In this document: one piece after another, positions 28,771 to 62,493 of the stretch | Position numbering within the stretch: the first letter of the stretch is position 1 | Layout: each line of letters begins with the position of its first letter | DNA from: an uncultured Dehalococcoidia bacterium | GTDB lineage: Bacteria; Chloroflexota; Dehalococcoidia; Lucifugimonadales; UBA3495 | NCBI GenBank assembly: GCA_964502995.1 | Contig: CAZCZB010000006.1 | Coordinates: 16,057 to 80,056, forward strand | Direction: 5' to 3' | DNA: 64,000 nt | Position numbers and translations under genes: made by a program | Notes under the pieces: model-generated | Database searches by the model: none | The model's input: the letters and a program-made list of their open reading frames with translations, nothing else | What the model was told of the DNA's origin: nothing

Positions 28771-29580
28771 GTGTTGACGCGCCGAATCATACCCTGCCTT
28801 GACGTTGACGCCGGCCGTGTCGTCAAGGGGACCAGTTTCGTCAATCTGCGCGACGCCGGCGACCCTGCCGAATTGGCGTCCCGCTACGACGAGGAGGGCG
28901 CGGACGAGTTGGTCTTCCTGGACATCACCGCGAGCAGCGACGCCCGGGACACCATCGTGGACGTGGTGCGCGCCGTGTCGGAGCAGGTTTTTATCCCGCT
29001 GACCGTGGGCGGCGGCATCCGTTCCATTGAGGACGTGCGCCGGATGCTCAACGCCGGGGCCGACAAAGTGTCTGTCAACACCGCCGCGATCAACACTCCT
29101 GAGCTTGTGGTGGAGGGATCCGCGCAGTTCGGCAGCCAGTGCATCGTTACGGCCATCGACGCCCGGCGCGTTGTGCCCGGTGAATCGTACCCCGAGCCCA
29201 GGGATGAGTCCCTGGGGTTGGATGAGGCGTCGGGCTGGCAGGTTTACACCCACGGCGGCCGCAACCCGACGGGCCTGGATGCGGTGAAATGGGCGAAGCG
29301 CACCGTTGCCTTGGGATCGGGCGAGATCCTGCTGACCAGCATGGACGAGGACGGGCAGCAGGACGGATATGACCTGCCGCTGACCCGGTCGATCTCGCGA
29401 GCGGTGCCGGTGCCGGTAATCGCCAGCGGCGGCGCGGGCAAACTCGATCACCTCTACGACGCCTTCTCCGACGGAGAGGCTGACGCGGTGCTGGCGGCGA
29501 GTATCTTTCACTTCGGCTCCTATTCCATCGCCGAGGCCAAGCAATTCCTGGCCGGGCGCGGCATCCCGATGCGGGTCTGA
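28771..29580 (+). CDS. hisF: Imidazole glycerol phosphate synthase, cyclase subunit
   Basis: Track ORF of 269 aa with a GTG start. It begins [32 protein letters not shown], then [17 protein letters not shown], and SGGAG...ASIFHFG. Confidence 0.95.
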
Positions 29581-55369: not shown

Positions 55370-55445
55370 TGGTGGGCCGTGTGGGGGTCGAACCCACGAC
55401 ACCCGGATTAAAAGTCCGGTGCTCTACCAACTGAGCTAACGGCCC
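55370..55445 (-). tRNA. tRNA-Lys (anticodon TTT), CCA encoded
   Basis: The minus strand reads GGGCCGT-TA-GCTC-AGTTGGTA-GAGC-A-CCGGA-CTTTTAA-TCCGG-GTGTC-GTGGG-TTCGACC-CCCAC-ACGGCCC-A-CCA. Confidence 0.92.
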
Positions 55446-55590: not shown

Positions 55591-55712
55591 CTTTCTGGTG
55601 GTTCAAGCGGGGTGGCACCACCCGTTCCCATCCCGAACACGGAAGTGAAACGCCCCAGCGCCGACGATACTGCTCTGGTGACGGAGTGGGAAAATAGGTC
55701 ACCGCCGGGAAG
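55591..55712 (+). rRNA. rrf: 5S ribosomal RNA
   Basis: Contains CCCGTTCCCATCCCGAACACGGAAGTGAAACGCCCCAGCGCCGA(C)GATACTGC, matching the universal 5S loop B/C-helix III-loop E core. Helix I closes 55591..55602 with 55701..55712. The ends are accurate to about 3 nt. Confidence 0.9.
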
Positions 55713-58571: not shown

Positions 58572-58690
58572 AAACGCTATAATCTTAACGACGAACATTC
58601 GCGACCGGGGCCGGCGCATACCCAGATTGACTGCGTTTCGCCCCCTTGTTACAGTCTGTCAACCATCTCGGTTAGCGATGAGGTGAAATA

Positions 58691-59827
58691 ATGGCCAGGC
58701 GTTTGCTCAAGGAACTGGAAAGGTCTTATGGGTTCGACGAAGTCGCTATCGTCCCCGGCGAAGTTACCATCAACCCGGAGATGACGTCGACTCAAATGAG
58801 CATCGGGCCGTACAGTTTTGAATCCCCGGTAATCGCTTCCGCGATGGACGGCTCGGTGTCCCCGAGGTTCGCGACGCTGATGCACGAAATGGGCGGCCTG
58901 GGCGCGCTGAACGGCGAGGGGCTTTACTCCCGCTACGAGGACCCCTACTCGGTTCTGGAAGAGATCATCTCGATGGACCAGAGCGAGGTCACCGAGTACC
59001 TGCAGGAAGTGTACAGCGAGCCCGTCAAGGAAAACCTGATCGGCGAGCGGGTGCGCGAGATCAAGCAGTCGGGCGCCGTCGCAGCCATTGCGTTCACGCC
59101 CCAGACCACCAAGAAATACAGTCCCCTGGCGGTGGAGGCCGGCGCCGACATCATCATCGTCCAGTCCACCGTCACCACGGCGCGCCACATGTCCCGCAGC
59201 TACCGCGGGCTGATATTCTCTGAGCTAATCAGCTCCCTGAACGTGCCGGTGGTCGTGGGCAATTGCGTCAGCTACAGCGTTGCCAGCGAGTTGATGGAAA
59301 CCGGCGTCGACGCCATCCTGGTTGGGGTCGGGCCCGGAGCGGCCTGCACCACCCGCGAGGTTACGGGCGTGGGCGTACCGCAGGTTACCGCTACGCTGGA
59401 ATGCGCCGCGGCGCGCGAGGACTATTTTGAGCGCACAGGCCGCTATGTCAGCGTCATAACCGACGGCGGGCTGCGGACCGGCGGCGACGTGTGCAAGGCC
59501 ATGGCCAGCGGAGCCGACGGCGTGATGCTGGGCACTCCGTTTGCCCAGGCTGCCGAGGCTCCCGGGCGCGGCTACAACTGGGGCATGGCCAACGCGCACC
59601 CCGAACTGCCGCGCGGCACCCGCATCAACGTGGGAACCAAGGGATCGCTGCGCCAGTTGCTCCACGGCCCCAGCAACGTGACCAACGGCACGCAGAACCT
59701 GGTGGGCGCGCTGCGCGTGGCCATGGGCATGTGCGGTTCCTACACGGTGCGTGATTTCCACAAAACCGAAATGGTGATCGCCCCGGCCATCAAAACCGAG
59801 GGCAAGCACTACCAGATGTTGGGCTGA
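58691..59827 (+). CDS. GuaB3-type IMP dehydrogenase-related protein (no CBS pair)
   Basis: Track ORF of 378 aa after GAGGTG, containing [44 protein letters not shown] and GADGVMLG. Confidence 0.88.
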
Positions 59828-59881
59828 TGTCAAACCCTTTCACCCTTTGATACCCGTTGTATCACGATTCGGAGGAAGCCA

Positions 59882-60418
59882 ATGACGACTGCAACCATCC
59901 AGATTCTGGACCCGCGTCCGGAGCACAAGACCGAGGAACGGGCGGCGGCCGGCCGGCTGCCGGGCCTTGCCGGCAAGACCATCGGCCTGCTGGAAAACCG
60001 CAAGTACCACTCCGACAACTTCCTGCAGGAACTGCAGGTGATCCTGGAGGAGGAGTACGCGGTGGAGAAGGTGCTGTACCTGCGCAAGTTCAGCTTCAGC
60101 GCCCCCTGCGCCGATGAGACCATCGACGAGTTGATCGCCGAGTGCGACGCGGTGGTGCATGGAATCGCGGATTGAGGGAGCTGCACGGCGTGGGGTCTCC
60201 ACGACACAGTAGTAACCGAGAGCCGCGGCGTTCCTTCCGTGAGCGTCATCACCGAGAGTTTCACCCGGGCCGCGCACGCCCGCGCGTCGTCGCTGGGTAT
60301 GCCAACCGTACAGATACTGGCGTTGCCCAGCCCCCTGGCGCCCCGTTCCATTCCGGAAGTTCGCCAGATGGCGCATGAGTACGCCGGACAGATCGCCGAG
60401 ATGCTAACCAACGACTAG
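59882..60418 (+). CDS. Predicted selenoprotein (178 codons, Sec at codon 98, motif U-G-S-C)
   Basis: The track ORF 59882..60175 stops at TGA 60173..60175. The same frame stays open for 80 more sense codons to TAG 60416..60418, and a SECIS-like hairpin follows the TGA. GGAGGA lies upstream of the ATG at 59882. Confidence 0.7.
60173..60205 (+). promoter_or_regulatory. Candidate bacterial SECIS element
   Basis: UGA GGGAGCUGCACGG CGUGG-GGUCU-CCACG. With the U of UGA as +1, the loop occupies +22..+26 (G23, U24), the same loop sequence and spacing as E. coli fdhF (from memory). Confidence 0.6.
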
Positions 60419-60436: not shown

Positions 60437-61189
60437 ATGGGCCTTCGGGTCGTGAACTGGAATGTTGAATGGGCTACGCCCCGATCGGAGCGTAGCCCTG
60501 TAATTCTGTGCCGGATCGCCGAGCACGACCCGGACATCATCTGTCTCACGGAAACCAACGAAAGGCTGCTGGAAAATTTCGCCGGGCACACGATCCACTC
60601 GCTGCCCGACTATGGCCACCGGATGATCGAGGGCCGGCGCAAGGTGATGCTTTGGTCCCGCAAGCCCTGGCGGCCAGCGGCCGGATTTGGCAGGGCCACG
60701 TTTCCGCCCGGCCGTTACGTGGCCGGGACCACGGACACGTCGGACGGCCCGGTTACCGTGGTTGGGGTCTGCATTCCGTGGTCGGGGTCGCGAACCGGGC
60801 GATTTGGGGGCAACAGGGTCCAATGGGAGGACCACGAAAGCTACCTGGATGGCCTGGCCCAGTTGTTCAGCACAGGACTCAAAGGTAGGGTCGTGGTTGT
60901 CGGAGACTACAACCAGTCGATCGGGGGGCGCAATTCGGCGCCGGTGAGACTGCGCGAGAAGCTCAGGCGAACGTTCGATGATGCGGGGCTGAGTATTTCC
61001 ACGGCAGAGCTTGAATTTGCCGGGCGCCGGGCCATCGATCACATGGCGATTACGCCTGACCTGGAAGCCGGTGCGCCGACTGCCATCAGCAACCTTCGAG
61101 AGAGCGGCAGGAAATTGTCCGACCACTTCGGTGTCGTCGTGGATCTGTCAATCAAAAATATCCCGAACCAACAACAACCGGAAGAGTAA
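60437..61189 (+). CDS. Endonuclease/exonuclease/phosphatase (EEP) family protein
   Basis: Track ORF of 250 aa containing LRVVNWNVEW, DIICLTETN, VVVGDYN and a C-terminal SDHFGVVVDL. Confidence 0.85.
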   Translation: MGLRVVNWNVEWATPRSERSPVILCRIAEHDPDIICLTETNERLLENFAGHTIHSLPDYGHRMIEGRRKVMLWSRKPWRPAAGFGRATFPPGRYVAGTTDTSDGPVTVVGVCIPWSGSRTGRFGGNRVQWEDHESYLDGLAQLFSTGLKGRVVVVGDYNQSIGGRNSAPVRLREKLRRTFDDAGLSISTAELEFAGRRAIDHMAITPDLEAGAPTAISNLRESGRKLSDHFGVVVDLSIKNIPNQQQPEE

Positions 61190-61194
61190 CGCTT

Positions 61195-62268
61195 ATGTCC
61201 ACCAACTCCGCTGCCCTCAGTTCTCGGCGCATCGACGTGCCCGACACCTACGAGGCGATCCAGGACTATTACGAGGAACAGGGCTGGACCGACGGCATGC
61301 CCGTGGTTCCGGCCACCGAGGACGCCGTGCGCCGCATGCTTGGCCCCTGGGGCGAGGATCCATCGCTTTCGCTGGGGATCGCACAGCCTTCCAACGCCGA
61401 AGTGACCATTGAGAAAGTTGCGGTGAACGCCGTGATGGCGGGATGCCGGCCGGAGTATTTTCCGGTGGTGGTCGCCTGCGTCAAGGCTGCGTTGCAGGGT
61501 CCGTTCAACCTGGCGGGATGCCAGGCGACCACGGGCGGGGCCGCCCCGGTGGTGATAGTCAACGGCCCCATCGCCGAGCGGTTGGGGATCAACGGCGACT
61601 CGGGCGCATTTGGGCCCGGATACCGGTCCAACGCCACCATCGGCCGGGCGCTGCGGCTTTTCGTGCGCAACGTGGCCGGTCTGATCATCGGCGACATGGA
61701 CAAGGCGACGCTGGCGATGCCGGGCCGCTACTCGTTCTGTTTCGCGGAGAACGAGGCCCGCAGTCCGTGGGAACCGCGCCACGTCGAGTTGGGGCTGGAC
61801 CCTGAGGACAGCATGGTCACCCTTCATGCCATCCGTGCGTTCTACCCGATCATGGAGACCACCGTATCGCGGGGCATTGAGGTGCTGAACACGCTGGTGC
61901 AGGCGACAAGGGCCACCGGGTTCTCAAACTATTACCAGATTGGGACCGGGGCGCAGGTTACGCTGGTGCTGAGCCCGGAACACGCCGCCGAGATCGCGGC
62001 CGACGGTCTGAGCAAGCGGGACGTCCGGGAGTACATTTACGCCAACGCGCGAATGTCCATTGAGGAACTTTCCGGGTTGGGCCACTGGGGGAACCGCAAC
62101 TACCCGTCATGGATCGACGACAGCAAGCCCGACACGATGGTTCCCATCGCGCCGCGGGCCGAGGACATCGTCATCGTGGTGGCCGGGGGCGACGGACGGC
62201 ACTCGGCCTGGCTGGCCGGATGGGGCGTGACTCGGGTGGTGACCGAAAAGATCGATATCCCGAATTAA
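61195..62268 (+). CDS. Conserved hypothetical protein (357 aa), function unknown
   Basis: Track ORF starting 5 nt after the EEP stop. It contains GWTDGMPVVPATEDAV, VAVNAVMAGCRPEYFPVV, NLAGCQATTGGAAPVVIVNGP and FGPGYRSNATIGRALRL. I recognise this only as a recurrent unnamed family. Confidence 0.75.
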   Translation: MSTNSAALSSRRIDVPDTYEAIQDYYEEQGWTDGMPVVPATEDAVRRMLGPWGEDPSLSLGIAQPSNAEVTIEKVAVNAVMAGCRPEYFPVVVACVKAALQGPFNLAGCQATTGGAAPVVIVNGPIAERLGINGDSGAFGPGYRSNATIGRALRLFVRNVAGLIIGDMDKATLAMPGRYSFCFAENEARSPWEPRHVELGLDPEDSMVTLHAIRAFYPIMETTVSRGIEVLNTLVQATRATGFSNYYQIGTGAQVTLVLSPEHAAEIAADGLSKRDVREYIYANARMSIEELSGLGHWGNRNYPSWIDDSKPDTMVPIAPRAEDIVIVVAGGDGRHSAWLAGWGVTRVVTEKIDIPN

Positions 62269-62296
62269 TTCCCCGCGTATCGTCTCCACGCCATCG

Positions 62297-62325
62297 CGCC
62301 CGCCGCCCGTTTCGGGTGGCGGGCG
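62297..62325 (+). terminator. 13-bp GC hairpin terminator after the 61195 gene
   Basis: CGCCCGCCGCCCG-ttt-CGGGTGGCGGGCG followed by CTCTGATTTG. Confidence 0.6.
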
Positions 62326-62493
62326 CTCTGATTTGCCGACCGTTTTCCGCGACTTTGCGCCGTCGGGGACGATGGTTTCACACCGGGTTATGTCCACGTC
62401 GCTGGCCGTTTTCGGTGGCAACCGTTTACGCCGACTGCTATTATTCAGTATCCGAGCCACCCCATATATTTTAGACAAACAGGTATCATCATC

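Follow-up and report, generated by a model that had tools for sequence, protein, structure and literature searches.

The DNA stretch considered here, referred to below as the window, consists of 64,000 nucleotides (64 kb) from an uncultured bacterium of the Dehalococcoidia. An open reading frame (ORF) on its forward strand, 59882..60175, opens with ATG 59882 and is closed after 97 codons by a TGA at 60173-60175. Past this TGA the same frame holds 80 further sense codons and then a TAG at 60416-60418, and the earliest in-frame start candidate after the TGA is GTG 60239. An earlier note on this DNA had described the TGA and the open frame up to the TAG and had pointed to a competing ORF at 60142..60378. 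Upon re-reading, the limits of the frame and the peptide quoted in the note were confirmed, and the competing ORF was found to lie in a different frame. Judging from the sequence and its relatives, 59882..60418 is very probably one gene, whose TGA is decoded as selenocysteine (Sec, U) to give a 178-residue selenoprotein of the UGSC family. The predicted peptide spanning residue 98 reads GIAD-U-GSCTAWGLHDTVVTESR. The features of the gene are listed below; nucleotides of the candidate selenocysteine insertion sequence (SECIS) are numbered with the U of UGA (60173) as +1.

59871..59875, + strand: Shine-Dalgarno-like GGAGG, 6 nt 5' of ATG 59882 (inspection of the sequence)
59882..60418, + strand: predicted complete coding sequence of a UGSC-family selenoprotein, from ATG to TAG, 178 residues with U98 (translation, family hidden Markov models, ratio of nonsynonymous to synonymous substitution rates, dN/dS)
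60173..60175, + strand: in-frame TGA, predicted to encode selenocysteine U98 of the U-G-S-C motif (TGA in 57 Dehalococcoidia genes, a Cys codon in 6 distant homologues)
60187..60205 (+15..+33), + strand: candidate SECIS minihelix, with pair G15-C33, bulged A32, stem C17-G21/C27-G31 and apical loop GGUCU at +22..+26 (minimum-free-energy fold, conservation, other Sec-type genes)
60176..60217 (+4..+45), + strand: extended lower stem of the candidate SECIS, variable and only partly compensated (minimum-free-energy structure, variation among loci)

Family membership and conservation across the TGA

The conceptual 178-residue translation, in which U was replaced by C for searches with hidden Markov models (HMMs), scores 169.2 bits with the Pfam family PF24696 (UGSC), whose cut-off is 25; the match extends over residues 7-176 and covers positions 1-171 of the 172 in the profile. 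With the NCBIfam family NF041046, "UGSC family (seleno)protein", it scores 132.4 bits and thus clears the curated threshold of 125 (profile positions 2-147 of 147). The family name suggested in the earlier note is therefore real. Both HMM alignments run across the TGA site. Additionally, full-length homologues from Archaeoglobi, Sphingomonadaceae, haloarchaea and others carry a Cys residue aligned with the TGA, which bears out the proposal that U-G-S-C is the Sec counterpart of a CxxC motif. A further search yielded about 60 full-length Cys-type proteins, some of which are already named "UGSC family (seleno)protein". The motif D-[U/C]-G-S-C (D97, U/C98, G99, S100, C101) is invariant in a 54-sequence alignment with the full-length Cys homologues.

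The "UGSC-containing protein" is an established selenoprotein family to which no function has been assigned, and it has been reported from the Sargasso Sea, Hyphomonas neptunium and a worm symbiont. The Global Ocean Sampling (GOS) survey counted 255 Sec forms against 21 Cys forms, and in its table UGSC ranks fifth by number among the selenoprotein families (PMC2398784, PMC1976440, PMC9312934, PMC13188914). The gene in the window is a new, mis-annotated member of this family, which has been known since 2005-2008, and not a new kind of thing.

The DNA of 62 genomic relatives was compared with the window. These comprise 56 Dehalococcoidia/SAR202 loci, many of them from sponge metagenomes, and six distant loci, from a metagenome-assembled genome (MAG) of the Archaeoglobi and from five Sphingomonadaceae. 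The 56 closer loci show 70-97% protein identity. The earlier note had proposed BLASTP and HMM searches for homologues spanning both halves of the gene, and the tblastn matches to these loci, like the HMM alignments, do cover both. Codon 98 is TGA in the window and in 56 of the 56 Dehalococcoidia/SAR202 loci (57 of 57 genes), and it is TGC or TGT in the Archaeoglobi MAG and the five Sphingomonadaceae.

When the gene was compared with seven relatives, dN/dS ranged from 0.09 to 0.23 before the TGA and from 0.03 to 0.18 after it, with dS of up to 1.8. On these ratios, purifying selection past the TGA is at least as strong as before it. The serine two codons past the TGA is encoded by both the AGY and the TCY codon families among the relatives, and selection therefore acts at the amino-acid level. 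The 21 codons from the TGA to GTG 60239 likewise combine conservation of the protein with synonymous variation. Elsewhere in the window, TGA is the ordinary stop of 10 of 34 long genes, and therefore the genetic code is standard. Taken together, the retention of TGA, the span of the HMM alignments, the low dN/dS, the switching of serine codons and the normal use of TGA as a stop exclude a true stop, a pseudogene, a separate downstream peptide and a reassigned code.

A second TGA-interrupted gene was sought in the window as independent evidence of Sec. The sole other junction with coding character on both sides, at 29578, proved to be that of HisF with a downstream HAD hydrolase that has a start of its own.

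The hairpin downstream of the TGA and probable selenocysteine decoding

The hairpin that the earlier note had described at +17..+31, CGUGG-GGUCU-CCACG, is present at 60189-60203. It lies within the minimum-free-energy fold, which answers the folding check suggested in that note, and is conserved. The note had also stated that the SECIS of E. coli fdhF carries the same GGUCU loop at an equal distance from the UGA, and this was verified in E. coli genome sequences. Of 5426 complete E. coli genomes, 5419 contain the 43-nt fdhF sequence beginning at the UGA with 100% identity within a gene annotated as fdhF. Its GGUCU occupies +22..+26, a register identical to that of the window hairpin. bSECISearch, by Zhang & Gladyshev 2005, is said to place the apical loop some 16-37 nt from the UGA, with a G and usually a U in it, and GGUCU at +22..+26 agrees with this description.

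The hairpin coincides with a constraint on codon usage. Codons +5..+10 (GCG TGG GGT CTC CAC GAC) show zero synonymous change in 57 distinct genes, while nearly all other degenerate codons within 90 codons vary. Inside the hairpin, 5 of 5 informative codons are invariant, compared with 4 of 118 outside it (Fisher p = 5.8e-7), and a run-length permutation gives p = 7e-5 for the invariant run. No invariant stretch of nucleotides in the gene is longer than that at +16..+35. No equivalent hairpin was found in the Cys-type UGSC genes.

Because an invariant helix in the Dehalococcoidia cannot show covariation, four unrelated Sec-type UGSC genes (L147-L150) were fetched from outside this group. All four have a TGA at the corresponding site and a hairpin in matching register, with loops AGUGU, AGUGU, AGCGU and AGUAU. 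G23 is invariant across the hairpins, and U24 is present in each of the four genes except L149. In a six-sequence alignment, 97% of cells are paired, as opposed to 19-56% when the 3' partner is slid, and compensatory double changes from GC to AU occur at pairs 15-33 and 18-30.

In the proposed mechanism, the UGA at 60173 would be read as selenocysteine during translation. The mRNA just 3' of it would fold into the SECIS at +15..+33, exposing G23 and U24 in the GGUCU loop, and the hairpin would recruit SelB, its presumed ligand, carrying Sec-tRNA(Sec) to the ribosome. No tRNA-Sec was found in the 64-kb window, and tblastn with the E. coli proteins found no SelA, SelB or SelD in the window or in any fetched locus; the window is devoid of selA, selB, selD and tRNA-Sec genes, as the earlier note had stated. 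Parts of the machinery are reported from a relative. One of the loci, MPNC01000001.1 of "SAR202 cluster bacterium bin87" (L035), holds a syntenic TGA-type orthologue with 89% identity. Table S4 of Slaby et al. (2017) lists three SelA (COG1921), one SelB (COG3276) and one SelD (COG0709) for bin87, and all three proteins are present in 5 of 5 SAR202 bins of that study (PMC5649159). None of the three observations that the earlier note had named as refuting its reading was made: homologues cover both halves of the gene, the hairpin is predicted and conserved, and Sec-insertion genes are published for a genome with the orthologue.

Several points weigh against Sec decoding. The selenium content of the protein and the binding of SelB are derived from sequence and not from experiment. 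The scan for tRNA-Sec covered the 64-kb window only, and SelA, SelB and SelD are taken from published tables of a relative. The covariation rests on four outside sequences, and its score was reached by 32 of 500 shuffles. No Rfam SECIS family matches the hairpin at the gathering or at a permissive threshold. Finally, the 45-nt window element, at -16.0 kcal/mol, is not more stable than shuffled sequence (z = -1.57). The same is true of the genuine fdhF SECIS (-14.9 kcal/mol, z = -1.56); since folding energy does not separate even that element from shuffles, it was not used as evidence.

Two alternatives to Sec decoding were considered. Read-through of the UGA without selenocysteine, either by a near-cognate tRNA inserting Trp, Cys or Arg in a leaky or programmed manner or under a reassigned code, would accord with the indirect assignment of Sec to residue 98 and with the window-wide scope of the tRNA-Sec scan. 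It is nevertheless very improbable. The use of TGA as a terminator by 10 of the 34 long genes speaks against reassignment, and near-cognate decoding would leave unexplained an RNA-constrained element that matches a SelB-binding SECIS in its position and in its G23-U24 loop. Moreover, the aligned residue is always Cys, the standard counterpart of Sec, UGSC is already a recognised selenoprotein family, and a genome with an orthologue is reported to encode SelA, SelB and SelD (PMC5649159). A true stop, leaving a 97-residue protein or a decaying pseudogene with a downstream frame that is non-coding or translated from GTG 60239, can hardly be credited: it would suit the uniform public gene calls (in a database of 5.8 billion proteins, the nearest 120 are without exception 97-103-residue fragments, cut at the TGA by gene callers), the ordinary role of TGA in this genome and the unexceptional folding energy, but it is contradicted by protein-level conservation with synonymous variability between the TGA and GTG 60239, including the AGY/TCY serine, by a dN/dS after the TGA equal to or below that before it, by family HMMs that align across the TGA, by Cys-type homologues that are single continuous proteins and, as regards decay, by the persistence of TGA in 57 genomes diverged to 70% protein identity.

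Predicted fold, the partner ORF357 and neighbouring genes

The fold of UGSC was modelled on the Archaeoglobi Cys orthologue, which is 36% identical to the window protein, with a 53-sequence alignment. In the model (predicted local distance difference test, pLDDT, 92.3; predicted template modelling score, pTM, 0.86), strands and helices alternate, the four strands are parallel, and C-G-S-C falls between strand 3 and helix 3. The earlier note had placed the motif at the end of a Rossmann-like beta-strand, and the orthologue model agrees with this. In the window protein, U98 and C101 would sit where strand 3 ends and helix 3 begins, which is where redox-active UxxC or CxxC pairs usually lie. A Foldseek search of the PDB returned generic flavodoxin-like matches (the MccF N-domain, WrbA, flavodoxin, lumazine synthase and PTS IIB) and folds of the periplasmic-binding-protein type. 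None of the PDB matches is significant (best E = 1.3e-3, TM score at most 0.5) and no thioredoxin is among them; searches of the PDB by sequence and by profile also gave no relative of UGSC. The fold is thus predicted to be flavodoxin-like and not thioredoxin-like. The thioredoxin-like fold proposed for UGSC in 2008 is unsupported, since the model is of the parallel flavodoxin-like type and Foldseek returned no thioredoxin.

A second conserved gene accompanies UGSC:

61195..62268, + strand: gene of the conserved partner 'ORF357', 357 residues, with conserved C84 (NAVMAGC) and C182 (FCFAENE), recognised by adjacency and by fusions

The ORF357 gene comes after UGSC in 61 of the 62 loci, including those of the Archaeoglobi (with a 4-nt gap) and the Sphingomonadaceae. 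It adjoins UGSC in four further contexts, a haloarchaeon, a Sphingobium and two metagenome contigs, where it starts no more than 1 nt from the UGSC stop or overlaps it. In 5 of 5 Sphingomonadaceae, UGSC and ORF357 form a single ORF of 589-611 residues. An exhaustive search found 5132 representative clusters of the ORF357 family at 50% identity, and there are at least 7955 hits in the 90% database.

Fusions are common within this family. Among 116 diverse ORF357 representatives, 38 have a UGSC domain in the same gene call, and the only other fused domains are FeThRed_B (two cases) and a thioredoxin-reductase-like flavoprotein (one case). P0374 and P0408 join ORF357 to FeThRed_B, the catalytic chain of ferredoxin:thioredoxin reductase (FTR), and P0411 joins it to a Pyr_redox_2 domain that resembles thioredoxin reductase (TrxR) and has a CAVCD motif. 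Outside the set of 116, ORF357 is fused to AhpC/TSA in P0462. Certain ORF357 calls of 414-453 residues start just past U-G-S-C (P0336 begins with MSWSVHD), and others of about 460 residues end with "...AIGD", exactly at the Sec codon. These calls are therefore Sec-type fusions, in both domain orders, that were split by gene callers, and they are stored as two calls broken at the TGA. The 2008 GOS paper mentions a "UGSC/Unknown_1 fusion", which is probably this fusion of UGSC and ORF357, with ORF357 as the Unknown_1 domain.

C84 and C182 are at least 90% conserved in ORF357. Searches of Pfam, NCBIfam and the PDB with the sequence, with a diverse profile or, by means of Foldseek, with a structure model (pLDDT 80, pTM 0.85) gave no relative of the protein. 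The weak Foldseek candidates, class I fumarase, Toblerone-fold hydrolases and PrpD/IRG1 (TM score about 0.26), are not significant. Based on the model, ORF357 may represent a new enzyme fold.

Two further observations concern ORF357. In P0325, P0352, P0377 and P0392 (713-741 residues), two ORF357 domains occur in tandem with no other Pfam domain. In addition, a gene of the DUF6282/amidohydrolase_2 type adjoins the UGSC-ORF357 module in a haloarchaeon, a metagenome contig and a Sphingobium (L143 6696-7547, L150 2517-3383 and L144 3128-3958 being the positions of this neighbour). The gene may encode a third partner in function, or it may hint at the substrate. Other recurrent neighbours are NAD(P) dehydrogenases and binding proteins of the NMT1 or TctC type.

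The other features around the module are as follows.

58691..59827, + strand: GuaB3-family gene related to IMP dehydrogenase, directly upstream of UGSC (TIGR01304, 436 bits)
60437..61189, + strand: endonuclease/exonuclease/phosphatase (EEP) gene, exonuclease III-like, between UGSC and ORF357 (PF03372)
62296..62326, + strand: terminator-like hairpin of 14 bp, 13 of them G-C, 28 nt past the ORF357 stop (consensus scan only)

The GuaB3-family gene is syntenic with UGSC only within the Dehalococcoidia, and nothing points to a link in function; a promoter-like site is found at 58627-58655. The EEP gene is 43-77% identical among relatives, compared with about 90% for the flanking genes. It is absent from loci L019, L020, L039, L042-46 and L048-50 and from all non-Dehalococcoidia loci. 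It is probably a variable insertion and not part of the UGSC-ORF357 module, and has either evolved fast or been exchanged repeatedly at one fixed spot. The hairpin past ORF357 has a weak T-tail (TCTGATTTGC) and could be a terminator or another structured element. Further upstream, a 5S rRNA gene (55594..55710) and a tRNA-Lys gene on the opposite strand (55370..55445) adjoin each other. Rfam detected no 23S or 16S rRNA in the 64-kb window, and thus the 5S gene does not seem to be linked to the genes of the large rRNAs.

Function and comparison with known systems

Gene context and fusions make it rather likely that UGSC serves a two-protein reductase as its dedicated selenol/thiol electron carrier, with ORF357 as the other subunit. 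UGSC would reduce ORF357 or a substrate bound to ORF357, and in doing so would alternate between selenolate-thiol and selenenylsulfide states. The oxidised form would then be recharged by a TrxR-like or FTR-like protein.

A different role is suggested by the surroundings of the Sec residue, which resemble those in proline reductase PrdB. For comparison, 80 prdB loci were fetched with a bait that is 85% identical to the C. difficile sequence, and "VDAV..TAG-U-GTCHR" was present in 61 of the 61 prdB genes read. When the UGSC profile was aligned with the PrdB profile by hhalign, the two Sec positions coincided in an alignment of 46 columns (score 38.9, probability 75%, E = 2.7e-5). The reversed template scored 20.2 and the maximum among 150 column shuffles was 23.3, so that 0 of 150 reached 38.9. 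Masking the CGxC motif in both profiles lowered the score to 29.1 and left the register unchanged. HMMER gave no match to PF07355 (GRDB) for the window protein or for 54 UGSC members at E values up to 10. Given the Sec-on-Sec match, the lack of a PF07355 signal and an unrelated partner, the resemblance therefore reflects a shared Sec-site module and not family membership. ORF357 was also considered as a pyruvoyl proenzyme like PrdA/GrdE, and this was rejected, as hhalign against PrdA, PrdD, PrdE, PrdE2 and PrdF gave probabilities of at most 0.6%.

In the Prd system, the Sec residue attacks a substrate held on PrdA, a U151C variant has no activity, and regeneration of the enzyme falls to a separate protein (PMC11229817). 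It is possible, if rather unlikely, that UGSC works in a similar way. Its Sec would then be the catalytic nucleophile that acts on a substrate held by ORF357, C101 would resolve the selenium adduct to a selenenylsulfide, and an external reductase would reduce it. While the Sec-on-Sec alignment resists shuffling and masking, no UGSC member matches PF07355 by HMMER. PrdB, too, is a Sec-dependent protein in a tight complex with a larger subunit and is regenerated separately (PMC11229817), but ORF357 is unlike PrdA, PrdD, PrdE and PrdF at the probabilities given above and has no sign of a pyruvoyl group. The excess of Sec over Cys forms in the GOS survey fits Sec chemistry that matters, yet Cys suffices in many lineages. 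The fusions with TrxR, FTR-beta and AhpC/TSA modules fit a nucleophilic role and an electron-carrying role equally.

The electron-carrying role may be part of a broader picture, on which the balance is about even. UGSC and ORF357 together would form a widespread two-component selenol/thiol reductase of Bacteria and Archaea, fed with electrons by TrxR-like or FTR-like modules. The Sec site of UGSC would be descended from, or convergent on, that of PrdB/GrdB, and ORF357 would be a new catalytic fold using its two conserved Cys residues.

The proposal of an electron-carrying subunit is weakened by several observations. It is built on gene context and fusions, from which the direction of electron flow and the chemistry were deduced, and the fold was read from a Cys orthologue of 36% identity and not from the window protein. 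Furthermore, P0323, a UGSC-ORF357 fusion of 553 residues, has I-G-G-S in place of U/C-G-S-C and thus neither Cys nor Sec in the motif. Redox chemistry may not be universal in the UGSC family, and in the lineage of P0323 the UGSC domain may be purely structural.

Identification of the gene alone would be ordinary for a specialist, UGSC being long known and curated as an HMM. The partner ORF357, the fusion network, the predicted non-thioredoxin fold and the PrdB-like Sec site supply a hypothesis open to testing for a family that has been without a function for two decades. With one specific partner, fusions to thiol/disulfide reductases and this Sec site, the "unknown function" of UGSC becomes a testable two-protein redox system. 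As a result of the split gene calls, catalogues of SAR202 and sponge-symbiont metagenomes systematically contain wrong models of this abundant selenoprotein and of its partner. The fdhF-like SECIS loop suggests that the gene might be expressible as a true selenoprotein in E. coli.

Compared with the known UGSC family, the window protein shares the full-length HMM match, the invariant D-U/C-G-S-C, the Sec/Cys dimorphism and a length of about 180-210 residues, and Sec forms of the family predominate in aquatic metagenomes. In contrast to many Cys-type members, which have a C-terminal tail of about 30 residues with a conserved terminal Cys, the sponge-associated and marine Dehalococcoidia/SAR202 lineage is without this tail. 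The candidate SECIS resembles that of E. coli fdhF in lying directly after the UGA, in exposing G23 and U24, in its two-tier helix and in its comparable energy. However, the stem sequences are unrelated. The fdhF loop is closed by A21-U26, whereas the window hairpin has G21-C27 and a 5-nt loop, and the unpaired base is a bulged U on the 5' side in fdhF and A32 on the 3' side in the window.

With thioredoxin and glutaredoxin redoxins, UGSC shares a UxxC or CxxC pair at a strand-to-helix junction, and the fusion of its partner to TrxR-like, FTR-beta and AhpC/TSA modules recalls a thiol/disulfide relay of thioredoxins and their reductases. The thioredoxin fold has a mixed sheet, while the sandwich predicted for UGSC is flavodoxin-like, with four parallel strands. 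The likeness to PrdB/GrdB lies in a local module, composed of a strand (DAVV...), U-G-[S/T]-C, a helix and an 'E..G[VI]PT' strand, and in the combination of a small Sec subunit, a larger subunit as its partner and a reductase that is separate from both. This similarity extends over only about 46 residues, and ORF357 is unrelated to PrdA/GrdE. The genomic contexts also differ, with Stickland fermentation for PrdB/GrdB and the catabolism of aerobic or marine heterotrophs for UGSC.

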